DNA of 64,000 bases, taken from positions 588,852 through 652,851 of the forward strand of contig OZ242201.1 of NCBI GenBank assembly GCA_965206105.1. The letters are read 5' to 3'. Positions 3,636-63,722 of the stretch are shown piece by piece; within the stretch, counting starts at the first letter, position 1; every line of letters starts with the position of its first letter. The DNA comes from Longimicrobiales bacterium (GTDB lineage Bacteria; Gemmatimonadota; Gemmatimonadetes; Longimicrobiales; Gaopeijiaceae). The notes beneath the pieces were generated by a model. The model was not told the origin of the DNA and did not search any database. It saw nothing but the letters and a program-made list of their open reading frames with translations. Position numbers and translations under genes: made by a program.

Positions 3636-4574
3636 ATGCGGTCCCGCCGACAGCGGTTCGAGCGATGCCGCCCCGGCCGAGACACCCGCCACCGCCGTCA
3701 CTCCGGCGCTGCCCGAAGGCGCCGAAGCCTTCTCCCTGCTCGGCGAGCCGCTCTCCCCACCCCGGCTTCCCCCGAGGTGGCGGCCCGGCGTGAAGACGAC
3801 ATCGCCGCCGCCCAGGCCGACTACGACGCCGACCCCGACGACGCCGACGCAATCATCTGGCTCGGCCGGCGCATCGGCTACACCGGCCACTACCGCGACG
3901 CGATCGAAGTCTTCTCCGAGGGCGTCCGCAAGCACCCCGACGACGCGCGCATGTACCGCCACCGCGGACACCGCTGGATCAGCGTCCGCGAATTCGACCG
4001 GGCCATCGAGGATCTGTCCCATGCGGCCGTGCTCATCGCAGGGCAGCCCGACGAGGCGGAACCCGACGGCCAGCCCAACGAACGCGGCATCCCGACGAGC
4101 ACGCTGCAGTCGAACATCCACTACCACCTCGCCCTCGCCCACTACCTCAAGGGCGACTTCGAGACCGCCCTCCAGTCATACGAAGACTACTTCGCCGTGA
4201 CCACCAACCCCGACCAGCTCGTCGCGATCTCGCACTGGTGGTACATGGCGCTCCGCCGCCTGGGCCGCGACGAGGAAGCTGCGGCCGTGCTGGAGCCGGT
4301 CACCGCGGAGCTCGACGTGATCGAGAACACGAGCTATCACCGCCTCCTCCTGATGTACAAGGGCGAAATCGAGGCGGACGAACTGTGGGACCCGGAGAGC
4401 GAGGACCCCGCCGGCGTGGCGATCGCGTACGGGGTCGCCAACTGGCACCTCTACAACGGGCGTGCGGAGCAGGCGGAGGAGATGTTCCGCCGCATACTGG
4501 AGGGGTCCGGCTGGGCGGGCTTCGGCTACATCGCGGCCGAGGCGGAGATCGCCCGGCTCGGCGCTACCCGCTAA
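3636..4574 (+). CDS. TPR repeat protein (start uncertain)
   Basis: ORF 3636..4574. TPR-like helices are present (AIEVFSEGVRKHPDDARMYRHRGHRW, YHLALAHYLKGDFETALQSYEDY). The N-terminal about 45 codons look non-native. A signal peptide-like segment lies in other frames upstream (see findings). Confidence 0.7.
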   Translation: MRSRRQRFERCRPGRDTRHRRHSGAARRRRSLLPARRAALPTPASPEVAARREDDIAAAQADYDADPDDADAIIWLGRRIGYTGHYRDAIEVFSEGVRKHPDDARMYRHRGHRWISVREFDRAIEDLSHAAVLIAGQPDEAEPDGQPNERGIPTSTLQSNIHYHLALAHYLKGDFETALQSYEDYFAVTTNPDQLVAISHWWYMALRRLGRDEEAAAVLEPVTAELDVIENTSYHRLLLMYKGEIEADELWDPESEDPAGVAIAYGVANWHLYNGRAEQAEEMFRRILEGSGWAGFGYIAAEAEIARLGATR

Positions 4575-5920
4575 CGCTCCACGTTCGCCCCCACCAACTG
4601 CGCGATCGCGGCCAGCGTCGTCTGCGCCGCGTTCAGCCCGAGCCGGAAGTCGTCATCCGTGTACGTCGTCCACACGTCGGTGGGCTGGTGCCAGTTCGGG
4701 TTCCACCCCGCCCCCACCTGCGCACCGCGCTCGTTCTCCCGCAGGCTGATCGCCGCGACGAGGTTCATGAAGGGCGTCGAATCGGTGTTGGTCATGTGCG
4801 GGCCGACCGTGGCCGGGTAGTCCGTCGCATAGCGCGCGTTTGCGAACTTGAAGAGGAACGCCAGGTTCATCGACTCCTCGACCATCTCCGAGTTCCACTG
4901 GAATTCGATGTTGACGTCGGCCTCGGGCCGCTGGTTGCGGCTGACCCGCCCGTCCGGACCCGGCGCTCCGTGATCCCACAGCATCATGTCGTGCTGGACC
5001 ATCCCCAGCCACCTGGGCTCGGGATACCGGCCGGAGCCCGGGGGATCCTCGATGCCCTGCAGCTCCTGGCGCTGCTCCACGTAAGCCCGCGCGCCGTTCA
5101 GCCCGGTCTCCTCGTTGTTCCACAGGATGAAGCGGATCGAGCGCTCGGTCTCCACGTCCGGCGAGCTGAAGATGCGGGCCAGCTCCATGACCAGCGCCGT
5201 GCCGGAGCCGTCGTCGTCCACCGCCTCGTTGACGCCGTGGCCGTCCATGTGCGCGCCCAGGATGTACATCTCGTCGGGGCGGGTGGTGCCGACCTTGGTG
5301 CAGTAGACCTGGGAGCGGTCGCCGTCGACCGGCTCCTCGCGGTTGAGCTCGCGGATGCGCTCGTCGGGCTGCGCCATGAGGCCGCGGTTGACGCCGGTGC
5401 GGCCCCGGTAGCCGAAGATGGTGCTGCCGCCGGAGCCGCGTCCCCGGCGTCCCACGAGGCCTCCGGTCGCCGTCGTCAGGTCCTCGACCTGCTGGCGGGG
5501 TGGGGGACGGCGGGCGGCGCCCTGGGCCTGAGCCGGCGTTCGGCGCGGCGGATCGGCGAACCGCACCGGCGCATACTCGTAGTGGACGCGCTCGGTGTTC
5601 GTGCAGCCTGCGTCCTGCAGCCAGGCCTCGATCCAGTCCACCGCGTCGCGGTTGCGCTGCGTGCCCTGGCGGCGGTCGCCGAACTGCGTCAGCCCCTTCA
5701 GCGTCGCCTTGTACTCGTCGAGGGTGAGGCGCTCGACCATGACGGCGACGGGGTCGACCTCCTGCTCCTCCTGCTCCTGCAGGGCGGCAAGCGGCCGGGT
5801 GGCGGCACCCACGGCCAGAAGCGACAGAACTGTAAGGAGAACACGACATTTAGTAATGGTCTCTTTACAGTCTCGGCGAGTGCCATCGGTTTGGAGTGGT
5901 GCGGGCGGGTGGCAGGGCAT
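4571..5920 (-). CDS. M28 family metallopeptidase (aminopeptidase-like), exported
   Basis: M28 motifs are present: GAHMDGHG, DDDGSGTA, NNEETGLNGA. Signal-like RVLLTVLSLLAVGAA. The start is set at the in-frame ATG 5920. An alternative start problem is described in findings. Confidence 0.85.
   Translation of the reverse strand: MPCHPPAPLQTDGTRRDCKETITKCRVLLTVLSLLAVGAATRPLAALQEQEEQEVDPVAVMVERLTLDEYKATLKGLTQFGDRRQGTQRNRDAVDWIEAWLQDAGCTNTERVHYEYAPVRFADPPRRTPAQAQGAARRPPPRQQVEDLTTATGGLVGRRGRGSGGSTIFGYRGRTGVNRGLMAQPDERIRELNREEPVDGDRSQVYCTKVGTTRPDEMYILGAHMDGHGVNEAVDDDGSGTALVMELARIFSSPDVETERSIRFILWNNEETGLNGARAYVEQRQELQGIEDPPGSGRYPEPRWLGMVQHDMMLWDHGAPGPDGRVSRNQRPEADVNIEFQWNSEMVEESMNLAFLFKFANARYATDYPATVGPHMTNTDSTPFMNLVAAISLRENERGAQVGAGWNPNWHQPTDVWTTYTDDDFRLGLNAAQTTLAAIAQLVGANVER
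5832..5868 (-). repeat. 37-bp AT-rich bipartite element, copy A (units inverted)
   Basis: Minus strand reads GTAAAGAGACCATTAC-TAAAT-GTCGTGTTCTCCTTAC. Lies in the 5' region of the M28 gene. Confidence 0.8.
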
Positions 5921-7869: not shown

Positions 7870-7923
7870 CTTACCGGCAACTATCCAGCCCTGCCACGGG
7901 CAGCGAAGTGCTTAGTTTCATCC

Positions 7924-10045: not shown

Positions 10046-11044
10046 GTGCCCCCACCCCTCACCCTCGTCATCCTCGCGGCCGGCCGCTCGACCCGCTTCG
10101 GCCGCCTGAAGCAGCTGGCGCCCGTCGGCCCCGGCGGCGCGGCCCTGCTCGACTACGCGCTCTACGACGGCGCCCTCGCCGGCTTCACCCGGTTCGTCCT
10201 CGTGATCCAGGAGGCGCTGCGGCCCGACTTCGACGCGCACCTGCGCGCCGCAATCACAGCCGGCCTCGACATTCGCTTCGCCTACCAGCGGCTCACCCAC
10301 CCCGGCCTGGTGGACGACCCGCCCCCCGGCCGCACCCGGCCCTGGGGCACCGGCCACGCGGTCCTGACGGCTGGCGAGGAGGTCGGCGGTGGCGGCCCCT
10401 TCGCGATCTGCAACGCCGACGACTTCTACGGACGGCAAGCGTACGCGGAGCTGGCAGAGGCAATGCGGAGTCCCCAGCCCCAGAACGCCACCAAGAGTAA
10501 AGCCAACATTACAGAACGTAAAGCAAACATGTCATTCGCCATCAGCTACCCCCTCTCGGCGACCCTCTCCGACAGCGGCGGCGTCTCGCGCGGCCTTTGC
10601 GAAGTCGACGAGTCCGGCACCCTCCTGCGGCTCACCGAGGGGCTGGAGCTGCGGCGGGTGGAGGCCGCCGACCGCAACCCCGCCCGCGTCCACGGCCGCG
10701 ACATCGCCGACCGGCCCATCAACGTCCCCACCGCCACCCCCGTCTGCACCAACCTGTGGGGCTTCGCACCCGGAATCCTGCCCCCCCTTCGCGACCTCTT
10801 CACCCGGTTCCTCGCCGCCGACCCCGGCCTTGACCGCGAGTTCTACCTCTCCGAAGCGATGAACGAGCTGATCGCGACCGGTCGCGCCCACTGCACCGTG
10901 CTCCCCACCGGCGCCCTCTGGCTCGGCGTCACCTTCCCCGGCGACCACGCGGGAGTGGCCGAATCGCTGCGCAAGCTGGTAGACTCGAAGGTCTACCCTG
11001 CGCGACTCTGGGACGCTCCGCCCCTCCCCTTGCCCCCCGATTGA
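10046..11044 (+). CDS. sugar-phosphate nucleotidyltransferase family protein
   Basis: N-terminal LVILAAGRSTRFG motif, then GTGHA and CNADDFYG. Carries an in-frame AT-rich insertion (element copy B). Confidence 0.75.
   Translation: MPPPLTLVILAAGRSTRFGRLKQLAPVGPGGAALLDYALYDGALAGFTRFVLVIQEALRPDFDAHLRAAITAGLDIRFAYQRLTHPGLVDDPPPGRTRPWGTGHAVLTAGEEVGGGGPFAICNADDFYGRQAYAELAEAMRSPQPQNATKSKANITERKANMSFAISYPLSATLSDSGGVSRGLCEVDESGTLLRLTEGLELRRVEAADRNPARVHGRDIADRPINVPTATPVCTNLWGFAPGILPPLRDLFTRFLAADPGLDREFYLSEAMNELIATGRAHCTVLPTGALWLGVTFPGDHAGVAESLRKLVDSKVYPARLWDAPPLPLPPD
10497..10533 (+). repeat. 37-bp AT-rich bipartite element, copy B (direct units), inside ORF
   Basis: GTAAAGCCAACATTAC-AGAAC-GTAAAGCAAACATGTC. 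Confidence 0.8.
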
Positions 11045-22614: not shown

Positions 22615-22651
22615 GTCAAGCAAACCTTACAAACTGTAAAGCGAAGTTTAC
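22615..22651 (+). repeat. 37-bp AT-rich bipartite element, copy C (direct units)
   Basis: GTCAAGCAAACCTTAC-AAACT-GTAAAGCGAAGTTTAC. Starts right after the stop at 22614 and ends 1 nt before the ATG at 22653. Confidence 0.75.
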
Positions 22652-37400: not shown

Positions 37401-38484
37401 CTTCGAGGACATGCCCGGCACCCACAACGGAAGCGCGTTCACCTTCGGGCTGACCTTCAGCGAGGAGTTCTCGGTCAGCTACCGGACGTTGCGCGACTCG
37501 GCGTTCGCCGTGACGGGCGGCTCGGTGACCCGGGCGAAGCGCAAACAACCGGCCAGCAACCTGCGTTGGACGATCACGGTCGAGCCGGCTTCGACAAGCG
37601 ACACGGTGACGATCACGCTGCGGGAGACCACGGATTGCGCTGCGACGGGCGCGATCTGCACGGCGGACAACCGGCCGCTGTCGCACTCGCTGACGGACAC
37701 GGTCATCGACGCGGCCTCGTCGTCCTCGAGTGACATCGCCGGCGGAACCGAGCAGGGCGAAGCGGAGGCCGCGCTGGCCGCCGCGGGCGGCATCACCCCG
37801 GAGGAGGCCGCCGCCGCGCTGTTCGGCGAGGGGCGGCTGAGCGAGTCGCAGCTGGACGCCCTCGACCGCCTCGGCAACCGGAACGGCCGCTACGACATCG
37901 GCGATCTGGTCGCCTGGAGGGAGCGCTGCCGCCAGGGCACCGCGGACTGCGGGGGAAGCCCCGCGAGCCCGGGGCCGGCGGGTGCGGCGGCGCTGCTTGC
38001 GGCCGTGCCCGGCGGCCGCAGAGGGTCGCGGGGTGGTCCGGGAGGGCGGAGGGGTGCCGGGCGACGGCGGCGGACGGCCGCGCCCCGCCAGGCCCTGGCG
38101 ATGCTCTTCGCCGTGGCCCTGGCCTGGTCCTGCACCGACGGCGGCCTGGTCGAACCGGCCGTCCCCGAACAGGCCCCGGACCCGGGCTTCCTCACCGTGT
38201 CGCTGGTCACGCCGGCCGACAGCCGCGACAGCGGCGTGCTGCTGGAACTCGATGGCCCGGGCATCGCGGAGGTGCGGGCTCCCGGGTTCGAGCTGTTCGA
38301 ATCCAGAGCCTCGGGGCGCCATCAGGTCATGGTAGCGGGCGCGCTGCGGGCGGGCCGCGTCCTTCAGATCCGCGTGCCGGACCGCAACCGGGTCTCGCTC
38401 TACCGGGTCCGCGTGATGCAGGTCGCGGGAGAGGACTACGCACTCAGGGACGAAGCGGAGTACCGGACGGTGATCACGCGGTGA
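31417..38484 (+). CDS. giant modular surface protein 2 (FN3, many Ig-like repeats, two-Cys repeat x6, Calx-beta x3, shared C-terminal cassette)
   Basis: Signal-like RRLAAAFLFACAFGALATGAAAQ. FN3 (PRNLTKE...IRARNSDG). A series of about 100-aa repeats ends in V(G/S)Y..P; the Ig-like/Big_5-like assignment is tentative. Calx-beta signatures. Confidence 0.85.
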   Translation: MTRRVRGIELVGDERAVGGSLARRHGRRLAAAFLFACAFGALATGAAAQNEPGAPRNLTKELADTNDVIVRWDPPDRGGPVEYYQYLIGDPEGFGSFWRRIAGSDSTTTSYTFEDVPGGESQLNIRARNSDGAGQRASVIVRINRPATGQPRISGRRHVPNRLRANLHLVEDEDGLRKELLDGSSHNPYRYQWLRGDAEPEACDFTRFGRKEYEMGLAKEYRLKPADAGDSLRVAVCFRDLMSETNVEMVISDYTEVIEADTRPPGVKRAFTSEGGGGVTLFFDEILNPGADPLDDIDENDPPAECDSSWLPPRSAFRVSVEGGKRTYRPREVTVQYCSKSTGRRDRIGPLDGRVHLDLGTTQLFNRGIKQGQSVRVIYTDPTSDDDKAALQDRTGNDVVSFDVEVENRSTQAPSDEDVSAEPKPKSVWVPPDGRTIRITFDEPLNPERESPADAFTVTQGNASLSVNNALLDGPRARVTLQVYPRVRQGGSVTVGYRNPGGNDALQDVDGLLAKTFSRRAANSSALKPGLRPVSAEVQADGLEVEMRFNTRLLENDVSPGAFTMQVGGTAYTFGDIEFFDNGNYMLLSQFGGVVPADETVTVGYTEPAHGALLLAQDSRTAGSFSRFGATNSSEWRDVPVAVDAVAEELDAFDILFVGELDTTVGSPPNSAFNVTIDGTATTFDSVRVVASDRVRISGLARQMKTGQRVVVSYTQPATGIVLQSATTGNALAGFELRVTLVFPPKPVGAQVSESVRHRLWIEFDRPISPDNFPPTSAFTVKVNGVARTVHSVSRGSASEPELVYLTFPTLVRGDPVTVSYEKPAGSRRLRGTNSREVGSFSDYRVDNPNPGVPRLLRLTWSLEDDEDRFSKVLVNLTFDADLSSSLPSESAFTGSTFTVAQGGGVNRVRFDVDEVWLDSNNPRRLRLKTSIFEASIREEIVIGYTKPTSGNTLQGARGHEVPSFSFTGDAVRANGQNAPPSPVTAEFTQLPLLHAGEVFTVRLVFSEEFAVTADQIRAGLTVTGGSLTALARVTDGEDRQWDLTVTPDAAADPVGLTLTPKESCETENAICTEQGGHLEAEAVAEVAGREPTHVVSARLTSHPGANGTWDTGETVTAAVEFSRQVSYQGPPGVTPTLGITLDGTRREAALTSTGWTDTLTFSHAVTAADSGATTVVLVANGLALNGTLLFDSDAYRLEPEVPADTLLTTPLTASFEDMPESHDGSRIRFGLTLSEEPSVGHTALRDEAFEVTGGTVFGAQRKESGSNRRWTISVDPDSAAATVTITLPETTDCEAAGAVCTADGRPLLGSLSATVEGEERGPELSVGDASATEGDTVAFAVSLSVARDEQVTVDYATSDGAAESGTDFTAASGTLTFAPGELSKTVGVATADDSDDEEDETFTLTLSNASGAGLRGATATGTIVDNDSTVLTVSFEDLPESHNGMALNVRLAFSEEVEVGHETIRSALEVTGGSVTGVSRSQGASNRRWRVTVEPASKTDTVTVTLPETTNCDASGAICTGDDRPLSHSLSATIAPPTLLTATFEDMPATHDGTRIRFGLSFSEELEVSHLTLRDEAFEVTGGTLFGAQRKERGSDRRWTVSVDPVSADSTVTITLLETTDCDADGAICTYDNRPLSHSLSDTVAVEGEEPTVPSLAVADASAAEGDTITFTVSLSAASTDQVTVDYATASGTAESGTDFTAVSGTLTFEAGDSSKTVSVATTDDSDEEEDESFTLTLSNASGAGLGDVTATGTIVDNDASVTPLTATFEDVPESHDGSRISFSLTFSEEPSVGYRTLRDEAFEVTGGTVFGAQRKETGSNRRWTISVDPDSATATVTITLPETTDCEAEEAICTDDERPLSHSLTDTVAVEVEEPTVPSLAVGDASATEGDAVTFTVSLSEASGQRVTVDYATSGGTAASGTDFTAASGTLTFDAGQTSKTVSVATIDDAVDEEDETFTLTLGNPSGASLGDAAATGTIVDNDTEAPEPLTATFEDMPGTHNGSAFTFGLTFSEEFSVSYRTLRDSAFAVTGGSVTRAKRKQPASNLRWTITVEPASTSDTVTITLRETTDCAATGAICTADNRPLSHSLTDTVIDAASSSSSDIAGGTEQGEAEAALAAAGGITPEEAAAALFGEGRLSESQLDALDRLGNRNGRYDIGDLVAWRERCRQGTADCGGSPASPGPAGAAALLAAVPGGRRGSRGGPGGRRGAGRRRRTAAPRQALAMLFAVALAWSCTDGGLVEPAVPEQAPDPGFLTVSLVTPADSRDSGVLLELDGPGIAEVRAPGFELFESRASGRHQVMVAGALRAGRVLQIRVPDRNRVSLYRVRVMQVAGEDYALRDEAEYRTVITR
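37636..38484 (+). repeat. near-identical 849-bp 3' cassette (copy 2)
   Basis: See 30194..31042. Confidence 0.9.
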
Positions 38485-41400
38485 TGGGTCCGGGGCGTGG
38501 ACGCGGCGCGGACGATGGTATCGGCACGGCAAGTGGGTGCAGCGGCCCCGGTGTGCCAGGCTCCCCGACCCGCGCATGGGTCGCGGCCGCATGGCTGGTC
38601 CTGTCATTCGCATGCCTCGTTCCCCAAGCTGCCGCCGCCCAGCCCCCCCCTCCGCCTCCCCGCAAGATGTGGGTCCTGGCGTGGACCGAGGACTTCAACG
38701 GCACCACGGTCGACTGGTCGAAATGGAACCACAGGAGCGAGGCGCTAAGGAGAGTTCGCACCCACGGCGGACGCAGGATCCATTGGCGGTACGAGCACGA
38801 CAACGTCGGTCTCGCGAACGGCCACCTGGTCTTGCGCAACACCCGGCAGCAGCAGGGCGGCAGTTTCGACATGGTCAGGGCCGCCGCGATCGACACCAAG
38901 GGCAAGTTCGAGCAGACCTACGGGTACTTCGAAGCCAGAATCAGGATCGCCCCCACCGCCGACGGCATCCACACGGCCTTCTGGCTTCAGAACGACGATC
39001 GGGACAAGAGGCCCAGTGAAGGTGGGGTCGGTGGCCCCTCCGACGGAGCCGAAATCGACATCCTCGAGTCGGTGTATACCAGCAACCACTATGGAATGGC
39101 CGTCCATTGGGACCAATACAGGTCGGTCAGCGAGAAACTGGACTTCGCTCCGATACACGACGGACAGTTCCACGTCTATTCGCTCGCGTGGACACCGGAC
39201 GGCTACACGTTCTATGCGGATGGAGAGCGGAAGACGGAGATGTCGGATGGCCTGTCCCACAGTGACGGATACGTCATTCTCTCCACCGGGGTGAGCTGGG
39301 GTCAGGGCAATGCCCACACCGGGACGTTCCCCAACGAGGCCCTGGTGGACTGGATCCGGGTGTACGAGTTGGCGGACGACCCCTCGTTCAACTATGCGCC
39401 GGTAGGCAAACCCACCATATCGAGTCTGGGCGGCACGCTGATCGCATCCGCCACCGACATCCGCGACGAGGACGGACTGACCGACCCGGCCTTCGAGTGG
39501 CAGTGGTACGTCGGCGATGGCGGCGACGGCGTTGGTGAGGCGATCTCCGGAGCCACCGAACCCGAATACGCGGTCAGGCAATCCGACTTCGGCAGGTCGC
39601 TCATTGTGCAGGTGGCCTTCACCGACGACCGCGGCACCGAAGAGAGCGTCTACAGCGATCCGTTTCCCGTCACTCATCCGCCGGTGATCACCAGCACCGG
39701 TCCGTTCACGGTGAACGAGGGGCAAACGTCGGTGGCGGCCCTGACGGCGACGGACGAGGACACGCCGGTCGAGGACCTGGTGTGGTCCATCGAGGGCGGC
39801 GCCGACGGAGATCACTTCACCTTGACCGGGAGCAACGTGCTGGCCTTCCGGGTGGCCAAGGACTTCGAGGCGCTGGACGACACCGGTCGCGACGGAAGCT
39901 ACGAAGTCGTGGTGCGGGTGGGCGACGGCGCGAACACGGCGAGCGATACCCTGGCCGTCACGCTCCTGGATGTGTACGAGGAGCAACCCCGGCGTCCCCC
40001 TCCCCCTCCCGGCAAGCGCTGGGTACTGGCGTGGAGCGAGGGCTTCAACGGCACCACGCTCGATTGGTCGAAATGGAACCACAGGAACGAAACCTATCGG
40101 CCTGAGCGCACGCATGGCGGACACAGGATCCATTGGCGGTACGACCACGGCAACGTCAGTCTCGCGAACGGCCATCTGGTCTTGCGCAACAATCTGCAGC
40201 AGTCGGGCGACGGTGCCGTCGTGGTCAAGGCTGCCGCGATCGACACCAAGGACAAGTTCGAGCAGACCTACGGCTATTTCGAGGCGAGCATCAGGATCGC
40301 TCCCACCGCGGACGGCATCCACACGGCCTTCTGGCTCCAGAACGACAACCGGCACATGAAGGCCAGCAACGGCGGTGTCGATGGGCCCTCCGACGGAGCC
40401 GAAATCGACATCTTCGAGTCGGTTTACACCCAGAACCTCTATGCCGTGGCCGCGCATTGGGACGATGGCGCCAGCGTCTCGGCAGACGCGGACTTCGCTT
40501 CGATACACGACGGACAGTTCCACGTCTATTCGCTCGCGTGGACACCGGACGGCTACACCTTCTACGCGGATGGAGAGCGCACGACGGAGATGTCCGGTGG
40601 CCTGTCCCACAGTGACGGATACGTGATTCTCTCCACCGGCGTGAGCTGGGCTGGCGGCAATGCCAATACCGGCACGTTCCCCAACGAGGCCCTGGTGGAC
40701 TGGATCCGGGTGTACGAGCTGGCGGACGACCTCTCGGTCAACGCTGAGCCCGAAGGCAAACCTACCATCTCGGCTGGGCCGAACGGGAGCGGCACGCTGA
40801 TCGCATCCGCCACCGACATCCGCGACGAGGACGGACTGACCGACCCGGCCTTCGAGTGGCAGTGGTACGTCGGCGATGGCGGCGACGGCGTTGGTGAGGC
40901 GGTCGCCGGGGCCACCGAACCCGAATACGCGGTCAGGCAATCGGACTTCGGCAGGTCGCTCACTGTGCAGGTGGCCTTCACCGACGACCGCGGCACCGAA
41001 GAGAGCGTCTACAGCGATCCGTTTCCGGTCACTCACCCGCCGGTGATCACCAGCACCGGTCCGCTCACGGTGAACGAGGGGGAAACGTCGGTGGCGGCCC
41101 TGACGGCGACGGACGAGGACACGCCGGTCGGGGACCTGGTGTGGTCCGTCGAGGGCGGCGCCGACGGAGATCACTTCACCTTGACCGGGGGCAACGTGCT
41201 GGCCTTCCGGGTGGCCAAGGACTTCGAGGCGCTGGACGACACCGGTCGCGACGGAAGCTACGAAGTCGTGGTGCGGGTGGGCGACGGCGCGAACACGGCG
41301 AGCGATACCCTGACCGTCACGCTCCTGGATGTGGATGACGAGACAGCGCCGGAGCTTCAGGGCGCCGAGGCGAGCACGGACTCGGTGGTGCTGACCTACA

Positions 41401-43450
41401 GCGAGGCGCTCGACGAGTCCTCGACGCCCGCGGCGGCGGCGTTCGCGGTGACGGTGGCGGGCGAGGTGTGGAGCCTTGCGGCGACAGGCCCCGTGGCGGT
41501 GAGCGGATCGACCGTGACGCTGGCGCTCGACTCGGCGGCGGCGCCCGGCGACACGGTTGAGGTGAGCTACACCCCGCCGCTCGCCGACGCCCTGCAGGAC
41601 ACCGCGGGCAACCGCGCGGCTTCGGCGACGATCGCGGCCAGCGTCCCCGCGGACACGGTGGTGACGCCCGTGGTGACGGTGCCGCTGACGGCGGAGTTCC
41701 AGGGGCTTCCGGAGCGTCACGACGGCGGGCCGTTCACCTTCCAGCTGGTGTTCAGCGAGGAGTTCAGCGTCAGCTACCAGACGCTGCGCGACGAGGCGTT
41801 CGAGGTGACGGGCGGCACGGTCTTCGGCGCCCAGCGCAAGGAGACGGGCAGCAACCGCCGCTGGACGATCTCGGTCGATCCGGACTCGGCGGACATAGCG
41901 GTGACGATCACGCTCCCCGAAACGGCGGACTGCAATGCGGCCGGCGCGATCTGCGCGGAGGAGAACCGGCGGCTGTCGCACTCGCTGACGGCGACGGTCG
42001 AGGGCGAGGCGGCGGCCGTCCCGTCGCTTGCCGTGGCCGACGCCAGCGCCACGGAGGGCGCCGCGGTCGCATTCACGGTGTCGTTGTCGGAGGCGAGCAG
42101 CGGACAGGTGACGGTCGACTACGCGACCTCGGGTGGGACCGCCGTGAGCGGAACCGACTTCACGGCGGCGTCGGGGACGCTGACCTTCGCCGCGGGTGAC
42201 AGCTCAAGACGGTGAGCGTCGCAACGGCCGACGACACGGTGGACGAGAACGACGAGACATTCACGCTGACCTTGAGCAACGCCTCCGGTGCGAGCCTCGG
42301 CGACAACGCCACGGCGACCGGCACGATCGTCGACAACGACACCACCGCAACGCCGCTGACGGCGACCTTCGAGAACATGCCGGAGACGCACCACGACATT
42401 GCGTTCGAATTCGCGCTGAAGTTCAGCGAGGAATTCCCGATCAGCTACAAGACGTTGCGCGACGGTGCGTTCAACGTCACGGGCGGCGAGGTGACAGGTG
42501 CGCGGCGCCGGCTGAAGAGCAGCAACCTCATCTGGTTCATCCAAGTCGATCCGGCCTCGGCGAACGACACGGTGACGATCACGCTGCGGGAGACGACGGA
42601 CTGCGATGCGGCCGGCGCGATCTGCACGGCGGACAACCGGCCGCTGTCGCACTCGCTGACGGACACGGTCATCGACGCGGCCTCGTCGGCCTCGAGTGAC
42701 ATCGCCGGCGGCACCGCACGGGACGAAGTGGAGGCCGCGCTGGCCCTAGCGGGCGGCATCACCCCGGAGGAGGCCGCCGCCGCGCTGTTCGGCGAGGGGC
42801 GGCTGAGCGAGTCGCAGCTGGACGCCCTCGACCGTCTCGGCAACCGGAACGGCCGCTACGACCTCGGCGACATGCTGGCCTGGATCGAACGCTGCAGGCA
42901 GGGCAACGCGGACTGCGGGGGAAGCCCCGCGAGCCCGGGCCCGGCGGCTGCGGCCGCGCTGCTCGCGTTCGTGCCCGGCGGCCGCAGAGGGTCGCGGGGT
43001 GGTCCGGGAGGGCGGCGCGGGGCCGGGCGTGGGCGCCGGGCCGCCGCGCCCCGCCACGCTCTGGCTATCCTCTTCGCCGCGGCCCTGGCGCTGTCCTGCA
43101 CCGACGGCGGCCTGGTCGAACCGGCCGCCCCTGAACAGGCCCCGGACCCGGGCCTCCTCAATGTGTCACTGGTCACGCCGGCCGCCAGTCGCGACAGCGG
43201 CGTGCTGCTGGAACTCGAGGGCCCGGGCATCGCGGAAGTGCGGGCTCCCGGGTTCGAGCTCTTCGAATCCCGAGCCTCGGGGCGGCATCAGGTCATGGTA
43301 GCGGGCTCGCTGCGGGAGGGCCGCGTCCTCCGGATCCGCGTGCCGGACCGCAACCGGCTCTCGCTCTACAGGGTCCGCGTGATCCAGGTCGCCGCCGAGG
43401 ACTACCAACTCAGGGACGAAGCGGAGTACCGGGCGGTGATCACGCGGTGA
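38484..43450 (+). pseudogene. giant modular surface protein 3 (two GH16-like + Ig-like + cadherin-like blocks, two-Cys repeat x2, Calx-beta, C-terminal cassette), broken by a 1-nt frameshift near 42208
   Basis: ORFs 38481..42215 and 42212..43450 join into one protein when compared with gene 4 (48417..48427 CTCAAGGACGG versus 42203..42212 CTCAAGACGG). GH16-type catalytic motifs EIDILE and EIDIFE. Signal peptide AWVAAAWLVLSFACLVPQAAAAQ. Confidence 0.7.
38643..41351 (+). repeat. internal tandem duplication of a ~1.35-kb GH16-like/Ig-like/cadherin-like block
   Basis: TGGGTCCTGGCGTGG at 38670 and TGGGTACTGGCGTGG at 40020, an offset of 1350. The unit ends are offset by 1359 (a 9-nt indel). Confidence 0.85.
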
Positions 43451-43551
43451 CGACCCGGGGCGCGCCCGTGGTGCGGGCGATTCGCGCGAATGCCGCATTG
43501 GGCACAACGGCTCATTCCTGCGGTGCGGATTGGGAAGGCGCACCAAAAAGC

Positions 43552-43588
43552 GTAAAGCAAACATTACCATATGTCGTGTTTACTTTAC
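43552..43588. repeat. 37-bp AT-rich bipartite element, copy D (units inverted)
   Basis: GTAAAGCAAACATTAC-CATAT-GTCGTGTTTACTTTAC, upstream of giant gene 4. Confidence 0.8.
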
Positions 43589-43724
43589 AAACCAGTCCAG
43601 CCCTTGACATCGGCAAACGCTGTTAGCTCGTCGTCTTGTGTCGTAGTATCTTGATTGGTCGAGAATGTATAGAAATGTATCGACCCGAAAACTGAGGCCA
43701 GCCTACCGCCAGCAGGCAGGACCC

Positions 43725-46700
43725 ATGACGAACACCCGGACGGTTGCATCCCAACGCAGGTCGATCGACACGGTCGCTGCAACAGGTACCTCGAGCCACG
43801 AGCCGCCGACAGGCATCCCGCCGGGCGCATGGGTAAGGGCGGCGTTGGTGATCCTGTCACTCGCGTGCGTTGGGCCCCAGGTTGCCGATGCGCAACCTCC
43901 TCCTCCAACCGGCAAGCGCTGGGTCCTGGCATGGAGCGAGGACTTCAACGGCTCGTCGCTCGATTGGTCGAAATGGAATCACAGGAGCGAGGCGTCTCGA
44001 GGGGAGCGCGGCCACGGCGGACACCGGATCAAGTGGCGGTACGAGCACGACAACGTCGGTCTCGCGAACGGTCATCTGGTGCTGCGCAATACCCGGCAGT
44101 CGGGTGATGAATACGACCTGGTCAAGGCCGCCGCGATCGACACCAAGGGCAAGTTCGAGCAGACCTACGGGTACTTCGAGGCCAGCATCAGGATCGCCCC
44201 TACCGGAGACGGGATCCACACGGCCTTCTGGCTCCAGAACGACAACCGGCACAGGAAGGCCGGCAACGGCGGTGTCGACGGGCCCTCCGACGGAGCCGAA
44301 ATCGACATCCTCGAGTCGGTGTACACCACCGATCGCTATGCCATGGCCGTTCATTGGGACGGCGGCCGCAGTCAGGTCGAGGAAACCGACTTCCCTCCTT
44401 TGCACGGCGGACAGTTCCATGTCTACGGGCTCGCCTGGACACCGGACAGCTACACCTTCTACGCAGACGGACAACGGAAGGAGCAGATGTTCGATGTCGT
44501 GTCTCATAGTGACGGATACGTCATTCTGTCCACCGGCTTAAGTTGGTTCGCGGGCAATGCGCACACCGGCACGTTCCCCAACGAGGCCCTGGTGGACTGG
44601 GTCCGGGTATACGAGTTGGTGGATGCCCCCGCGATCACCGTGACGGGCAGCGCGAACGTGGGCCGCACGCTGACCGCATCCGCCACCGGCATCCAGGGCG
44701 AGGCCGGATCGGGCACTCCGACGTTCGGGTGGCAATGGCTCGTCAGTGATGGCGACGGCGATTCCTACGCGGAGATTGCCGGAGCCACCGCGACGGAGTA
44801 CACCGTCAGGCCATCCGACCAGGGCAAATCGCTCAAGGTACGCGCCACCTACACCGACGCCGACGATACCCGGCAGACCGTGTACAGCGAGCCACTTCTC
44901 GTGACTCAGCCACCGACAATCACCAGCACCGGCCCATTCACGGTGAACGAGGGCGAGACGGCGGTGGCCACTTTGACGGCGACAGACGGAGATACGAAGG
45001 CCGGGGAACTGGTCTGGTCCGTGCGGGGCGGTGTCGACGGAGACCACTTCACCTTCACCGGAGGCAGCTCGCTCGCCTTCAGGGCCGCCAAGGACTTCGA
45101 GGCGCCCGACGACGGGGATCGCGACGGAAGCTACGAGGTGGTGGTGCGGGTGGGCGACGGCGCGAATACGGCGACCGATACCCTGTCCATCACGCTCGCG
45201 GATGTCGACGACGAGGGTGGTCCCGAGCTCCAATCGGCGAGGGGTGACGGAAGCGCCCTGCTGCTGGTGTTCGACGAGGTACTGGACGCGTCGTCCACGC
45301 CGGCAACGGCGGCCTTCGCGGTAGCTGTGAATCGTGTATCGAAGGCCATTTCGCACGTCCAGCTGGAGAACAACCTGGTCAGGCTGACGCTGACTGGCCC
45401 GCCGCCGGCTTTGGGCGATTCCGTCACCGCAAGCTATACCGTACCGTCATCGAATCCGCTGCGGGACGTCTCGGGTACCCCGGCCGCCTCGGCGACGATC
45501 GAGACCCTCCTGAAGCCGCGGCTGACCGCGCGTTTCGACGCTATTCCAAATGCGCATGGTGGCGCACCCTTTTTGCTCTCGGTGATCTTCAGCGAGGCGA
45601 CCACCGTGGCCTGGAAGGCGATGCGCGACCGCGTCCTGACCGTGAAGAATGGGCGGGTGACCCGTGCGGTACGGCTCAACCACGGTGGTCCCGAGAACGC
45701 GGCCTGGCAGGTCACGATCGAGCCGGCTGGCGGCGACGTGACCGTCGAGCTGCCGACGACGACGGATTGCGGGGCTGGCGACGCGGTGTGCACGGAAGAT
45801 GAACGCCCCCTGATCGAGGCCGTGACGGCGACGATAGCCCAGGGGACCGTCCCTCCGCTGACGGCGGAGTTCTCGGAGGCACCTGGTGAGCATGACGGAT
45901 CGGAGGGCTTTACGGTCAGGCTCAACTTCACCGCGGCGGTCAACGTGACCGAGACGGCACTGCGCACCAGGACGCTGAGCGTGAGCGGCGGTCGGGTAGA
46001 GTCGGCGGAGCATGAAATCGGACGCCGCGACCGGTGGTTGCTGACAATCGCGCCGACATCGCTCGAGGACGTGACTGTGGCACTCTCATCACCGGCTTCC
46101 TGCGGCGAAGCGGACGCGGTGTGCGCGCCGGACGGGCGCAAGCTGTCTGCCGGCGCGGATGTCCGCGTCAAGGGACCGGCGAGCATTCCGCTTACGGCGT
46201 GGTGGCGGCCGTACTACCGGAAGCACGACGGCTCGAAGGTGTTCACGCTCAACGCCGAGTTCAGCTGGCCGGTGGCGACCTCGCGCGAGGCCGTGCGGGA
46301 TGCCGTCCAGGTTACCAACGGCGAGGCCACCGATGCGTTTCCCAGAGAGAATCAGCCAAAGGTCTGGGTGTTCCGGATCAAGCCGCTGTACAACGAGACG
46401 GTGCGCGTCACGTTGCTGCCGGCCAGCGACTGCGCCGCCGAGGGGGCGATCTGCACCGACGACGGGCGTCCGCTGTCGAGCACGGCGCTTTGGGATGTCC
46501 TGCCCAGGAACCCGAACGCGGTGGACGAGACCGCGCCGGAAGTGCAGGGTGCGGAGGTGGACGGCGCGCACCTCGTATTGCTGTACAACGAGGGGCTCGA
46601 CGAGGCCTCCACGCCCGAGGCGGGCGCCTTTGCCGTGACGGTGGAAGGCCAGGCGCGTGACCTGGCGGCGAACGATCCGGTTGCAGTGGACGGGCGGCGG

Positions 46701-49688
46701 GTGCGGTTGACGCTCGCATCGGCGGTCGGGCACGGCGACACGGTGACGGTGAGCTACACGGTGCCGAGTTCGAACCCGGTGCAGGACAGGGCCGGGAATA
46801 CGGCGGCCGCGTTGAGTGATGAGGCGGCGACCAACCATACGCCCCAGGACACACCGGCAGGCGACACCACCGCGCCGGAGCTTCAGGGCGCCGAGGCGAG
46901 CACGGACTCGGTGGTGCTGACCTACAGCGAGGCGCTCGACGAGTCCTCGACGCCCGCGGCGGCGGCGTTCGCGGTGACGGTGGCGGGCGAAGCGCGGAGC
47001 CTTGCGGCGACAGGCCCCGTGGCGGTGAGCGGATCGACCGTGACGCTGGCGCTCGACTCGGCGGCGGCGCCCGGCGACACGGTTGAAGTGAGCTACACCC
47101 CGCCGTCCGCCGACGCCCTGCAGGACACCGCAGGCAACCGCGCGGCTTCGGCGACGATCGCGGCCGGCGTCCCCGCGGACACGGTGGTGACGCCCGTGGT
47201 GACGGTGCCGCTGACGGCGGAGTTCCAGGGGCTTCCGGAGCGTCACGACGGCGGGCCGTTCACCTTCCAGCTGGTGTTCAGCGAGGAGTTCTCGATCAGC
47301 TACGCGCTGCTGCGGGGTACCGACTCGGAGCCCGGCGCGATCTCGGTGACGGGCGGCGGCGTGACGGGGGCGGGTCGCGTGGTGGCGGGCGAGAACCGGC
47401 AATGGAACATCACCGTCGAGCCGGGCGGCACGGGGGATGTGACGATCACGCTGCCGGAGACGACGGACTGCGGGGCGAGCGGCGCGATCTGCACGGGGGA
47501 CAGCCGGCCGCTCTCGGCGACGGTCACGGCGACGGTCGCGGGCGAGACGCACGTCCCGGCGCCCGAACTGACGCTGGCCGGCGCGAGCGCGACGGAGGGG
47601 AACGCGACGGCGGACTTCGCGGTGACACTGAGCCGCGCTGCGACGGACACGGTGACGGTCGACTACGCGACCTCGGACGGCACCGCGGCGGCCGGGACGG
47701 ACTACACGGCCACGTCGGGCACGCTCACCTTCGCAGCGGGCGACACGGCGAAGACGGTGTCGGTGCCGGTGCTTGACGATGCCGTCGACGAGGAGGACGA
47801 GACGTTCACGCTCACCCTGAGCAACGCCTCCGGTGCGAGCCTCGCCGACACTGCGGCGACCGGGACGATCGCTGACAACGACACCACCGCAACGCCGCTG
47901 ACGGCGACCTTCGAGGACATGCCGGCGTCGCACGACGGCAGCCGAATCAGCTTCGGGCTGACCTTCAGCGAGGAGTTCAGCGTCAGCTACCAGAAGCTGC
48001 GCGACGAGGCCTTCGAGGTGACGGGCGGCACGGTCTTCGGCGCCCAGCGCAAGGAGACGGGCAGCAACCGCCGCTGGACGATCTCGGTCGATCCGGACTC
48101 GGCGGACATAGCGGTGACGATCACGCTCCCCGAAACGGCGGACTGCAATGCGGCCGGCGCGATCTGCGCGGAGGAGAACCGGCGGCTGTCGCAATCGCTG
48201 ACGGCGACGGTCGAGGGCGAGGCGGCGGCCGTCCCGTCGCTTGCCGTGGGCGAGGCGAGCGCCACGGAGGGCGACGAGGTCACGTTCACGGTGTCGCTGT
48301 CAGCCGCGAGCAGCCGGCAGGTGACGGTCGACTACGCGACCTCGGGTGGGACGGCCGTGAGCGGAACCGACTTCACGGCGGCGTCGGGGACGCTGACCTT
48401 CGCCGCGGGTGACAGCTCAAGGACGGTGAGCGTCGCAACGGCCGACGACACGGTGGACGAGAACGACGAGTCATTCACGCTGACCTTGAGCAACGCCTCC
48501 GGTGCGACGCTCGGCAACACCACGGCCACCGGCACGATCGTCGACAACGACACCACCACCGCAACGCCGCTGACGGCGACCTTCGAGAACATGCCGGAGA
48601 CGCACCACGACATTGCGTTCGAATTCGCGCTGAAGTTCAGCGAGGAATTCCCGATCAGCTACAAGACGTTGCGCGACGGTGCGTTCAACGTCACGGGCGG
48701 CGAGGTGACAGGTGCGCGGCGCCGGCTGAGGAGCAGCAACCTCATCTGGTTCATCCAAGTCGATCCGGCCTCGGCGAACGACACGGTGACGATCACGCTG
48801 CGGGAGACGACGGACTGCGATGCGGCCCGCGCGATCTGCACGGCGGACAACCGGCCGCTGTCGCACTCGCTGACGGACACGGTCATCGACGCGGCCTCGT
48901 CGGCCTCGAGTGACATGACAAGCGGGGATGTCGCGGACGACGCGGCCGAGGCGCTGATCGTCGCCGGCGGGATCAGTCCCGACGAGGCCGCCGCGGCATT
49001 GTTCGGGGAGGCGGTGCCGGGCGGACAGCGGCTGGAGGCGCTGGACCGGCTCGGCAACCGGAACGGGCGATACGACCTCGGCGACCTGCTCTCCTGGATC
49101 GATCGCTGCCGGCGGGGCGAGGTGCGCTGCGGCGGCACGCCCGCCGGCTCCGAGGGGTCGGCGGCATCCGCCGCCCTGCTGGCAGCTACGGGCCCGGGCT
49201 GGAGGAAGTTCGGGCAACCGCGCAGGCGGAGGCGCGATTCCGGCCCCGGAGGCCGAGCGCCGGCTCACCGGGCGGGCCGAAGAAAGGACCCGGTGCGATG
49301 GGCACTCGCCGCGCTGTTGGTCGCCGCCGTCGCCTGGTCATGCACCGGCGACCTGACCGGACCGGGCGCACCGGAGCAGGATCCCGGTTTCGTGACGGTG
49401 CAACTCGGCGTCCCGGCCGCCCATCGCGCCACAGGTGTCCTGCTGGAGCTGGAGGGCCCCGGCATCGAAGCGGTGCGGGCTCCGGACCGAGAGCTGTATC
49501 AGTCCGAATCACCGGGCCGGCATCAGGTCATCGTGGCGGGCTCCGTGACCACGGGTCCCCTGATGCGGTTCCGCGTTCCGGACCGCAACCGGCTCCCCCT
49601 GTACCGGGTCCGCGTCGTGCAGGTTGCGGGGGAGGACTACGGGCTCAGGGACCCCGGCGACTACAGGGCCGTGATCACGTCGAACTGA
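43725..49688 (+). CDS. giant modular surface protein 4 (GH16-like, Ig-like, cadherin-like, Big_5-like, two-Cys repeat x6, Calx-beta x2, diverged C-terminal cassette)
   Basis: ORF 43665..49688; the start is ATG 43725 or 43665. Signal AWVRAALVILSLACVGPQVADAQ. GH16 motif EIDILE. Calx-beta signatures. Confidence 0.85.
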   Translation: MTNTRTVASQRRSIDTVAATGTSSHEPPTGIPPGAWVRAALVILSLACVGPQVADAQPPPPTGKRWVLAWSEDFNGSSLDWSKWNHRSEASRGERGHGGHRIKWRYEHDNVGLANGHLVLRNTRQSGDEYDLVKAAAIDTKGKFEQTYGYFEASIRIAPTGDGIHTAFWLQNDNRHRKAGNGGVDGPSDGAEIDILESVYTTDRYAMAVHWDGGRSQVEETDFPPLHGGQFHVYGLAWTPDSYTFYADGQRKEQMFDVVSHSDGYVILSTGLSWFAGNAHTGTFPNEALVDWVRVYELVDAPAITVTGSANVGRTLTASATGIQGEAGSGTPTFGWQWLVSDGDGDSYAEIAGATATEYTVRPSDQGKSLKVRATYTDADDTRQTVYSEPLLVTQPPTITSTGPFTVNEGETAVATLTATDGDTKAGELVWSVRGGVDGDHFTFTGGSSLAFRAAKDFEAPDDGDRDGSYEVVVRVGDGANTATDTLSITLADVDDEGGPELQSARGDGSALLLVFDEVLDASSTPATAAFAVAVNRVSKAISHVQLENNLVRLTLTGPPPALGDSVTASYTVPSSNPLRDVSGTPAASATIETLLKPRLTARFDAIPNAHGGAPFLLSVIFSEATTVAWKAMRDRVLTVKNGRVTRAVRLNHGGPENAAWQVTIEPAGGDVTVELPTTTDCGAGDAVCTEDERPLIEAVTATIAQGTVPPLTAEFSEAPGEHDGSEGFTVRLNFTAAVNVTETALRTRTLSVSGGRVESAEHEIGRRDRWLLTIAPTSLEDVTVALSSPASCGEADAVCAPDGRKLSAGADVRVKGPASIPLTAWWRPYYRKHDGSKVFTLNAEFSWPVATSREAVRDAVQVTNGEATDAFPRENQPKVWVFRIKPLYNETVRVTLLPASDCAAEGAICTDDGRPLSSTALWDVLPRNPNAVDETAPEVQGAEVDGAHLVLLYNEGLDEASTPEAGAFAVTVEGQARDLAANDPVAVDGRRVRLTLASAVGHGDTVTVSYTVPSSNPVQDRAGNTAAALSDEAATNHTPQDTPAGDTTAPELQGAEASTDSVVLTYSEALDESSTPAAAAFAVTVAGEARSLAATGPVAVSGSTVTLALDSAAAPGDTVEVSYTPPSADALQDTAGNRAASATIAAGVPADTVVTPVVTVPLTAEFQGLPERHDGGPFTFQLVFSEEFSISYALLRGTDSEPGAISVTGGGVTGAGRVVAGENRQWNITVEPGGTGDVTITLPETTDCGASGAICTGDSRPLSATVTATVAGETHVPAPELTLAGASATEGNATADFAVTLSRAATDTVTVDYATSDGTAAAGTDYTATSGTLTFAAGDTAKTVSVPVLDDAVDEEDETFTLTLSNASGASLADTAATGTIADNDTTATPLTATFEDMPASHDGSRISFGLTFSEEFSVSYQKLRDEAFEVTGGTVFGAQRKETGSNRRWTISVDPDSADIAVTITLPETADCNAAGAICAEENRRLSQSLTATVEGEAAAVPSLAVGEASATEGDEVTFTVSLSAASSRQVTVDYATSGGTAVSGTDFTAASGTLTFAAGDSSRTVSVATADDTVDENDESFTLTLSNASGATLGNTTATGTIVDNDTTTATPLTATFENMPETHHDIAFEFALKFSEEFPISYKTLRDGAFNVTGGEVTGARRRLRSSNLIWFIQVDPASANDTVTITLRETTDCDAARAICTADNRPLSHSLTDTVIDAASSASSDMTSGDVADDAAEALIVAGGISPDEAAAALFGEAVPGGQRLEALDRLGNRNGRYDLGDLLSWIDRCRRGEVRCGGTPAGSEGSAASAALLAATGPGWRKFGQPRRRRRDSGPGGRAPAHRAGRRKDPVRWALAALLVAAVAWSCTGDLTGPGAPEQDPGFVTVQLGVPAAHRATGVLLELEGPGIEAVRAPDRELYQSESPGRHQVIVAGSVTTGPLMRFRVPDRNRLPLYRVRVVQVAGEDYGLRDPGDYRAVITSN

Positions 49689-52293: not shown

Positions 52294-53318
52294 AGCGTCA
52301 GCGCCACCGCGCCGATAAATGCCGGAATGAGCATACTCGAATACAGAATGAGCGCGAGGAGTCCCTTGATCACGGTCCATATCCATCCGTCCCGGTAGAA
52401 GTGCCGCATGGCCGCCAGCGTGTAGTACAGCACCCACAACGATGTGGCAAGCCAGACCACGTTGGCGACGACGCCCGCGGGGAGCAGGAGGGGAATGGCG
52501 GACGCGAGCAGAGCGAACGTCTGAAGATGAATCTGGAAGACCAGGTGCTCGACGAAGTACCGCTTCTTTCTGAATTGGATGATTGCGAACACGAGGGCCT
52601 GGAAGGGCAGCAGGCAAAGGTAGGAGACCGACAGGTTCCCAATGACCCGTTCCATGAAGAACACGGGATCATGCACAAAGTCGATCATCAGGCTCCAGAG
52701 TGCCTTCTCCAGCCAGCCCGTTTCGCCCGGGGCCCTCGGTTCCATGTCCCCGGACAAGCTGAGGATCATTCCAACGCCGGCAGCTTCGCCGGGCCGGCTC
52801 AGGATATCGTCCAGCTTCTGCCGGTACCGCGGTTCCAATCGCGTCTTGAGGGCGTCGACCTGCGCCTGGTCGGGAGCGAGATCGTCAAGCACGGCGTCGG
52901 TCCCGTCGCCCACACCTGCACTATCTGCCGCCAGGTTTCCGCGGGACACATCGAACGACACCGATGGGTCGATGGTCCCCGTGTCCACGCCGCCGAAGAA
53001 TGCCCGCGCGAACGCGAAGAAGTAGAGGATCGTCGCGAACAGGTACATCCGCACCGGCGACATGTAGTTCGCACGGTGGTTGCGCGAGAACTCGGCGGAC
53101 AGACGCCCCGGGCGGATCAGCTGCTTCAGGGTCTGCAGCAGCTTCGAGTCCACTTCGAGGGTCTCCCGCAGGAGGTCGCCCATGACGGACCACGCGGAGC
53201 GGATGTAGTTCCGGTCGTTCTGCCCGCAGTAGCCGCAGAAGCGTTCCCCGCGCGGGCGGCCGCAGTTGAGGCAGGCGGGGCCGGGATCGGGGGTGGATTC
53301 GGGCGCGGATTCAGACAT
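52290..53318 (-). CDS. DUF3667-like zinc-ribbon membrane protein (paralog 2)
   Basis: CLNCG...FCGYCGQ zinc ribbon, then the RSAWSVMGDL...RPGRLSAEFSRNHRANYMSP block and TM helices. Confidence 0.8.
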   Translation of the reverse strand: MSESAPESTPDPGPACLNCGRPRGERFCGYCGQNDRNYIRSAWSVMGDLLRETLEVDSKLLQTLKQLIRPGRLSAEFSRNHRANYMSPVRMYLFATILYFFAFARAFFGGVDTGTIDPSVSFDVSRGNLAADSAGVGDGTDAVLDDLAPDQAQVDALKTRLEPRYRQKLDDILSRPGEAAGVGMILSLSGDMEPRAPGETGWLEKALWSLMIDFVHDPVFFMERVIGNLSVSYLCLLPFQALVFAIIQFRKKRYFVEHLVFQIHLQTFALLASAIPLLLPAGVVANVVWLATSLWVLYYTLAAMRHFYRDGWIWTVIKGLLALILYSSMLIPAFIGAVALTL

Positions 53319-63685: not shown

Positions 63686-63722
63686 GTAAAGACAACGTTA
63701 CATTTCGTAAAGCAAACATGAC
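63686..63722 (+). repeat. 37-bp AT-rich bipartite element, copy E (direct units)
   Basis: GTAAAGACAACGTTAC-ATTTC-GTAAAGCAAACATGAC. The ATG inside unit 2 opens the DinB-like ORF. Confidence 0.8.

Follow-up and report, generated by a model that had tools for sequence, protein, structure and literature searches.

In the lexA operator of Escherichia coli, tandem SOS boxes (CTGT-N8-ACAG) are laid out as 16-5-16, with a dimeric repressor on each box. Here we compare with this and other described systems a 37-bp element, two 16-nt units separated by 5 nt, that occurs five times in a 64,000-nt stretch of the genome of a Longimicrobiales bacterium (contig OZ242201.1, positions 588,852 to 652,851; "the window" below) and again at loci collected from other genomes (designated by L numbers). 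The elements are real copies of a motif that is conserved across one order, the Longimicrobiales (Gemmatimonadota). We infer that they are paired, cooperatively occupied double-stranded DNA (dsDNA) sites for a dimeric, Longimicrobiales-specific protein, most likely a global transcription regulator, and for this reading of the binding, the factor and the outcome we put the probability at roughly 55%. Like the tandem SOS boxes, the element presents two 16-bp dyads 5 bp apart and 21 bp from center to center, with outer arms 8 bp apart (here GTAA-N8-TTAC), but the half-site sequence is another one, and most SOS boxes stand alone, in contrast to nearly all sites here, which are double. Next to the sites no lexA, recA or uvr gene was seen, and tblastn with E. 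coli RecA, LexA, Fur and Zur found no match in the window or the collected loci. The neighbors include DinB_2, DnaE-like and HNH genes, the HNH sites lying on the 3′ side of the genes.

Among systems with a LuxR/FixJ-type helix-turn-helix (HTH), NarL/NarP use "7-2-7" pairs of the heptamer TACYYMT, and the GacA/UvrY box is TGTAAG-N6-CTTACA. The NarL/NarP sites resemble the units in having two inverted heptamers with a 2-bp separation in a 16-bp site, and the GacA/UvrY box has identical outer TGTAA...TTACA geometry in what amounts to an 18-bp version of the element; however, the heptamer here is GTAATGT, no response-regulator gene is linked to it, and tandem 21-bp arrays are not known from those systems. 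Intragenic operators are known from the PurR site in purB and the CcpA cre roadblock sites, where a regulator's palindrome is likewise kept in an open reading frame (ORF) and constrains codon choice; unlike these, the present element is a 37-bp double site kept in one frame across an order, in a hypervariable loop and a signal peptide. The Mycobacterium MIRU intercistronic repeats and the Rickettsia palindromic elements are 40–150 bp long and are not known to have a dyad half-site logo. As here, they fill gaps, overlap stops or starts or lie in frame in ORFs, and vary in unit number, but the present elements have the position-specific conservation typical of a protein-binding site. In the ARG boxes of ArgR, 18-bp palindromes are paired at a distance of 3 bp, an 18-3-18 layout with the same 21-bp period; their inner half-site bases differ, and no arginine genes flank the sites here. 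ArgR and TyrR are both oligomeric regulators that bind their boxes cooperatively. TyrR boxes, with the consensus TGTAAA-N6-TTTACA (PMC10170061), have the same outer TGTAA-N8-TTACA arms. TyrR, however, is a gammaproteobacterial factor of the enhancer-binding-protein type, and no aromatic amino-acid genes flank the sites described here. Finally, the alphaproteobacterial Zur box, GTAATGTAATAACAT... (PMC5387054, Table 7), is an AT-rich palindrome with the same arms, GTAATGT and ACAT(TAC). Its central spacer is 4 bp where ours is 2 bp, so that the same protein geometry is unlikely, and no znuABC/ZnuA, COG0523 or ribosomal-paralog gene was found among the annotated neighbors. The element matches none of these regulator boxes (SOS, NarL/NarP, GacA/UvrY, ARG, TyrR and Zur), each of which departs from it in sequence or in spacing, and their characteristic regulon genes were not seen among the neighbors. 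A literature search on the motif or on Gemmatimonadota regulons returned no description of it, only look-alike boxes (Zur, PadR and TyrR). We would class the element as a new member of the paired palindromic protein-binding sites, its unusual trait being long-term upkeep inside coding sequence.

All five elements reported in the initial annotation were verified in the window. Element A (5832..5868, minus strand) reads GTAAAGAGACCATTAC-TAAAT-GTCGTGTTCTCCTTAC on the minus strand; the other four are on the plus strand, namely B (10497..10533, GTAAAGCCAACATTAC-AGAAC-GTAAAGCAAACATGTC), C (22615..22651, GTCAAGCAAACCTTAC-AAACT-GTAAAGCGAAGTTTAC), D (43552..43588, GTAAAGCAAACATTAC-CATAT-GTCGTGTTTACTTTAC, a near-perfect 37-bp palindrome) and E (63686..63722, GTAAAGACAACGTTAC-ATTTC-GTAAAGCAAACATGAC). 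With up to three mismatches allowed, the 16-nt consensus has nine matches in the window, as against 0.03 expected by chance from 100 dinucleotide-preserving shuffles of the window, and a position weight matrix (PWM) made from the ten units recovers the tenth (5832–5847). A scan of the 64-kb window with this PWM gave no unpaired unit, which bears out the description of ten units as five 16-5-16 pairs with a 21-nt period. The GC content of the elements is 32–38% in a window of 68% GC, and the motif stands far above the shuffle expectation.

Scanning a degenerate two-unit pattern through 185,579 species genomes matched 51 loci, 44 of them in Longimicrobiales or in metagenome-assembled genomes (MAGs) named "Gemmatimonadetes bacterium"; the other seven are AT-rich chance matches and one high-GC Brevundimonas locus with a genuinely similar array. 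About nine further usable high-GC loci came from a scan of metagenome contigs, and a scan of viral contigs yielded AT-rich chance matches only. The homologs of the nucleoside triphosphate (NTP)-transferase that hosts element B are annotated as Gemmatimonadota. The general unit is the 16-bp palindrome GTAATGT-NN-ACATTAC or, with flanks, (AAT)GTAATGT-NN-ACATTAC(ATT). In 64 unique elements, comprising 256 half-sites, the successive half-site positions are G in 100%, T in 98%, A in 86%, A in 95%, T in 68%, G in 96% and T in 72%; the flanks prefer A, T and T over 3 nt and then fall to background, and the central NN and the spacer are variable. Arrays have two units, occasionally three or four, and every one of them is in exact 21-bp register. 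The dyad symmetry with two conserved half-sites is that expected of a paired operator, as is the phasing by whole helical turns, 21 bp being two turns, which extends to the three- and four-unit arrays. The lineage of the window has mostly an asymmetric version of the unit, GTAAAGCAAACATTAC, in which the strong half ACATTAC is joined to a weaker half GCTTTAC (degenerate half-site GTAAAGC). Because either half may be the weak one, units look direct or inverted. The direct (B, C and E) and inverted (A and D) patterns pointed out earlier therefore do exist, but the units are quasi-palindromes and only the side on which the weaker half lies differs.

Two arrays outside the Longimicrobiales deserve separate mention. 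In the alphaproteobacterium Brevundimonas balnearis (L058, 1703–1787), three to four similar units including TGTAATGTCAACATTACA lie between the divergent gene for a 135-aa membrane protein and a fatty-acid desaturase / ABC1 kinase operon; this locus gave no pointer to the binding factor. Four TARA contigs of 32–37% GC (L076, L081, L094 and L095) have a perfect 21-bp direct repeat, GTAAAGCTAACATTAC-ACGAT-GTAAAGCTAACATTAC, in a conserved noncoding region, and L081, the one low-GC marine contig read throughout, carries phage-like genes judging by its ORFs. The TARA repeat shares the 16-5-16 layout, yet is probably unrelated to the Longimicrobiales motif.

The clearest evidence for what is being conserved comes from element B. 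Its position is midway through the NTP-transferase gene (10046..11044, plus strand), where it encodes, in frame, the peptide SKANITERKANMS in a variable loop; this gene leads a conserved cluster of NTP-transferase, Na+:solute symporter and GHMP sugar kinase genes. Of the 120 closest NTP-transferase homologs (65–94% identity), at least 55 carry the element, as scored by a strict peptide pattern from which the residue preceding each unit was left free. In 110 of 110 cases that residue is one of Ser, Cys, Arg and Gly, and no other amino acids are encoded by NGT codons. Other positions of the loop alternate among N, D, H and Y (NAC codons) and among K, N and Q. Since chemically unrelated residues that share nucleotides stand in for one another, the target of selection is the DNA and not the peptide, and DNA-level selection maintains the element within ORFs. 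At nine DNA loci element B is conserved next to a 5′ flank that cannot be aligned. When a neighbor-joining tree of the NTP-transferase proteins was built without the loop, the presence of the element was strongly clustered on it (12 changes, versus 40 with shuffled labels), as expected if the element is for the most part inherited vertically and is now and then lost or gained. Of the three forward frames of the element only one lacks stops, the other two reading G-TAA and ACA-TGA-C, and this explains why the intragenic copies are all in one frame. A separate site B directly upstream of the symporter gene, considered for some loci, was rejected, as all seven loci proved to have the same intragenic NTP-transferase site.

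Element A is also intragenic. It occupies codons 18–30, in frame, of an M28 peptidase gene (4571..5920, minus strand; Pfam PF04389) whose ATG at 5920 follows AAGGAGG, and encodes the peptide CKETITKCRVLLT in the n/h region of the signal peptide; the gene call in relatives has the identical length of 449 aa. Two copies, A and B, are thus in frame within coding sequence, where the initial annotation had counted one. Site A is kept in the orthologous M28 genes of L074, L075 and L099 and is missing from the M28 5′ end of the syntenic locus L097.

Elements C, D and E lie at gene boundaries. Element C begins right after the TAA of an epimerase gene (22612–22614) and stops 1 nt short of the ATG of a lipoprotein amidohydrolase gene (22653), so that it fills the 38-nt gap between them. 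A homologous epimerase gene in L062 is also followed by an element, and there the downstream gene is a different one and convergent; in the syntenic L097 the epimerase-amidohydrolase gap is GC-rich, with a Shine-Dalgarno sequence (SD) and no element. Element D is 102 nt past the stop of the upstream ORF (42212–43450) and 76–137 nt before giant gene 4, which encodes a GH16 / Calx-beta / SWM-repeat protein and runs from 43665 or 43726 to 49688; a perfect TTGACA hexamer (43604–43609) lies 16 nt downstream of the element. Element E starts 16 nt past the stop of a 123-codon gene, and an ATG at 63718, in its last half-site, is likely the start of the DinB-like gene. The same arrangement, including the small upstream gene, is found in L026, L065 and L092. 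In L065 the element is immediately preceded by an in-frame stop, so that the start must be the ATG inside it, and the L026 ortholog has a DinB_2 Pfam match. In L098, a 21-kb locus without the 37-bp element, a gene about 400 nt downstream of a DinB_2 gene (1412–2995) encodes a 527-aa fusion of an XRE-type HTH, an ImmA/IrrE-like peptidase M78 and a GIY-YIG domain.

An SD (GGAG, GAGG or AGGA upstream) precedes 37 of 79 called genes in L074, L075, L097, L098 and L099. As about half of the genes have none, its absence before the genes at C and E is nothing special, and SD-independent initiation seems to be common in these Gemmatimonadota. A further AT-rich leader without an SD, GAAGTGCTTAGTTTCATCC (window 7905–7923), abuts the ATG of a MutS_V (MutS2-type) gene; it is conserved upstream of that gene in L074 and L075 and has two changes in L099. 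Two other AT-rich islands of the window are a palindrome, ACGTACACAATATTGTACAGT (31160–31180), upstream of giant gene 2, and a direct repeat, AATGTATAGA-AATGTATCGA (43664–43683), just before or at the start of giant gene 4.

The check on orthologs proposed in the initial annotation came out in favor of conservation, since sites are kept at the same positions in the M28 signal-peptide codons, the NTP-transferase loop and the DinB start codon. The genes with sites at orthologous positions also include a methyltransferase gene that follows a GT4 glycosyltransferase gene, ApaG/beta-lactamase, TMEM164 and DnaE, and the recurrent contexts are an ApaG/beta-lactamase divergent pair, TMEM164 after asd, a DnaE-like gene and a lipoprotein/ABC pair. 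Site presence looks all-or-none between lineages. L074, L075 and L099 keep both A and B, and L097, which is syntenic with about 3–24 kb of the window, has none of A, B and C, and one degenerate pair elsewhere. That sites should stand or fall together is expected if they depend on one trans-acting factor.

Of the readings offered at the outset, the operator of a regulator or nucleoid protein fits best (independent half-sites, 21-bp phasing, orthologous conservation and DNA constraint in ORFs), and the interpretation in the initial annotation is, taken as a whole, partly supported. In the mechanism that we propose, each 37-bp element would be two adjacent dsDNA sites for one sequence-specific protein, probably a dimer with HTH-type recognition, and each dimer would read one 16-bp dyad GTAATGT-NN-ACATTAC together with its short A/T flanks. 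Two dimers, or up to four in some arrays, would be placed 21 bp apart; as this is two helical turns, they would share one face of the double helix, and their binding could be cooperative. The outcome would be occlusion where a site is at a start codon or gene 5′ end (DinB, amidohydrolase, M28 peptidase and giant gene 4), and a roadblock where it is inside an operon or gene, as in the NTP-transferase / symporter / kinase cluster.

Several observations weigh against a global regulator. Many sites abut stop codons, more tightly than they do start codons; at least four strong sites (L030, L062, L066 and L069; probably also L025) are between convergent genes, among them the best palindrome of the data set, that of L062, and divergent gaps are rare. 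Convergent and stop-abutting placement is atypical for promoter-proximal operators. The 5′-end bias that had been proposed is only partly right: a start codon is found within 60 nt of about half of the intergenic sites, several having an ATG within the last half-site (ACATGAC), but many are at stops, the convergent cases stand, and two orthologous site groups are intragenic. No candidate regulator gene adjoins any site. Among 44 small neighbor proteins no family occurs in more than two, with no DNA-binding family among the 25 listed, and Pfam found no recurrent DNA-binding family among about 90 neighbor proteins. The flanking genes have no common function, as they encode M28 and S9 peptidases, amidohydrolases, beta-lactamase-fold proteins, permeases and ABC transporters, and also glycosyltransferase/methyltransferase, DnaE, ComEC, glyoxalase and acetyl-CoA synthetase. 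Lastly, the five elements in the 64-kb window amount to about ten times the density estimated from the other loci.

Some of these points would be at home in an architectural reading, in which the elements are sites for a chromosome-organizing or nucleoid-associated protein (compare Noc-NBS, SlmA-SBS, MatP-matS and ParB-parS) whose occupancy is selected wherever it is tolerated, in any type of gap and in permissive ORF loops. Sites in tandem, convergent and divergent gaps as well as in ORFs, the position of the L062 palindrome, and neighboring genes without a shared function all suit it. So does the number of sites: three additional pairs in the flanks of matched loci correspond, by a rough estimate, to about one per 130 kb, and together with the strict-pattern matches per genome they suggest a few tens of sites in each genome. 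Strict-pattern matches, of which there are five to seven per complete genome, are however scattered over complete chromosomes (from 0.29 to 3.95 Mb of 5.16 Mb and from 0.97 to 2.66 Mb of 3.24 Mb) with no obvious domain, and many sites cover a start codon or a 5′ end at a distance that is conserved; we regard an architectural role as possible, if on the unlikely side. More doubtful in our view is a lineage-wide "dual-coding" DNA signal, that is, a protein-binding module phased at 21 bp (7 codons) which has long been kept in one frame inside proteins (a signal peptide and an enzyme loop) and at stops and starts, serves a non-classical genome-wide role such as roadblock, insulation or chromosome organization, and was perhaps first spread by an HNH-linked mobile process. 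Mobility could also be the whole story, with the elements being a selfish repeat, similar to miniature inverted-repeat transposable elements (MITEs) or REPINs, or a MIRU-like intercistronic variable-number tandem repeat (VNTR) with a 21-nt (7-codon) unit, inserting at gene boundaries and in frame and perhaps linked to DUF222-HNH genes. Elements do fill whole intercistronic gaps, the TAA of GTAA often being the upstream stop and the ATG of ACATGAC sometimes the downstream start, and the 21-nt period preserves the frame in arrays of two to four units. Homologous DUF222-HNH genes (67–72% identity) of two different genomes, in L030 (7045–7830, minus) and L060 (4583–6067, minus), end 10–19 nt before an element, the similarity of the two loci reaching no further; the units of one element are more alike than units across elements (195 versus 166, a comparison confounded by lineage); and the all-or-none presence between lineages also agrees. 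These traits resemble those of intercistronic repeats such as MIRUs, and such an origin is kept as a minor rival, but it is improbable. No target-site duplication or homology past the short A/T flank is evident in the flanks read, window copies differ at exactly the degenerate motif positions, unlike recent copies, and there are few copies. Sites persist at orthologous positions down to about 65–70% protein identity with the motif conserved and the flanks scrambled (A, B and E are retained in relatives at 78–98% protein identity, loss being confined to a separate lineage in which three syntenic sites are gone together). No hairpin-preserving compensation is seen, and there is no transposase or RAYT gene among the scanned neighbors. 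The mobile element or MITE suggested at first finds no support in view of the degenerate-position differences, the flanks read and the inheritance at orthologous positions.

We rate as quite improbable that the element serves the downstream gene, on leaderless or short-leader transcripts, as its promoter or as an unstructured AU-rich region of translation initiation. The start codon is inside the element or a few nt from it in the DinB, EamA transporter and amidohydrolase genes, SDs are confined to the 37 of 79 called genes mentioned above, and the element-free gap of L097 has an SD instead. The weaker half-site is also preferentially 5′ along the direction of transcription (23 versus 8, p = 0.01), but this bias may come from a sense-strand excess of A over T, which is seen in the window, and not from a directional function. 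Sigma factors do not read dyads and tandem identical units, the 21-bp unit repeat would leave a mere 15-nt spacer for sigma-70 hexamers, the TANNNT hexamer of unit 2 is only 4 nt from the embedded ATG, and convergent-gene and mid-ORF sites do not fit. A sigma-70 promoter at D was rejected, as no −35/−10 pair with 16–18 nt spacing was called in 43300–43900; an ECF-type promoter and a BldD-like TNAC-N5-GTNA junction were set aside because the spacing or the conservation of the full unit does not suit them. Hardly credible any longer is selection on RNA, be it as a hairpin, an intrinsic terminator or the site of an RNA-binding protein. Many sites do come after stop codons, and folding is better than in shuffled sequences for A, D and the perfect L062 palindrome (z = −3.5 to −4.3), but not for B, C and E (z > 0). 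Compensated double changes at pairs 5-12, 3-14 and 7-10 number 0 where about 9.5 are expected, the frequent asymmetric variants within units (A5 with A12, G14, C7) are never compensated, and complementarity between units at variable positions is not above that of shuffled pairings (191 versus 203). Half-sites that vary independently and without compensation argue that an RNA or cruciform stem is not what is selected; such variation is a prediction of separate protein-to-half-site contacts, not of a stem. The small structured element also entertained at first is unsupported on the same grounds, as of the five only A and D fold. An intrinsic terminator was rejected separately, as the stems are AT-rich with only two or three T after them and a terminator scan at D did not pick out the element. 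Sites in the middle of ORFs would terminate their own genes, and Rfam 15 has no match in the whole window at the gathering score.

Longimicrobiales are abundant in soils, sediments and sponges and have barely been cultured, and we found no regulatory DNA of theirs described. The 37-mer is a ready bait for a major DNA-binding protein of the order, and conserved target loci are listed above, among them secreted peptidases and amidohydrolases, a sugar-salvage operon, DinB-family genes and giant surface proteins. The NTP-transferase loop is an unusually clean natural case of DNA selection overriding protein selection, with Ser, Cys, Arg and Gly alternating solely through their shared NGT codons, and it is relevant to gene annotation and to models of codon evolution. 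Should the sites turn out to have an architectural or roadblock function instead of being classical operators, this would be the more unusual.

Finally, we note some features of other window genes. The giant surface-protein genes (25298–31042, 31417–38484, 42212–43450 and 43665–49688) encode Calx-beta, cadherin, fn3, SWM-repeat and GH16 domains, and their products share a near-identical C-terminal domain of about 70 aa that ends ...RVPDRNR..LYRVRV.QVAGEDY.LRD..EYR(T/A)VIT and may be a sorting or anchoring signal. ORFs 38481–42215 and 42212–43450 overlap by 4 nt, the second opening in the middle of a Calx-beta-like repeat (VSVATADDTVDENDETFTL) and having the shared C-terminal domain, and the pair has the look of a single giant gene that a frameshift or a sequencing error has broken in two. 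Two adjacent genes on the minus strand, 52290–53318 and 53322–54374, are paralogs, both of DUF3667.

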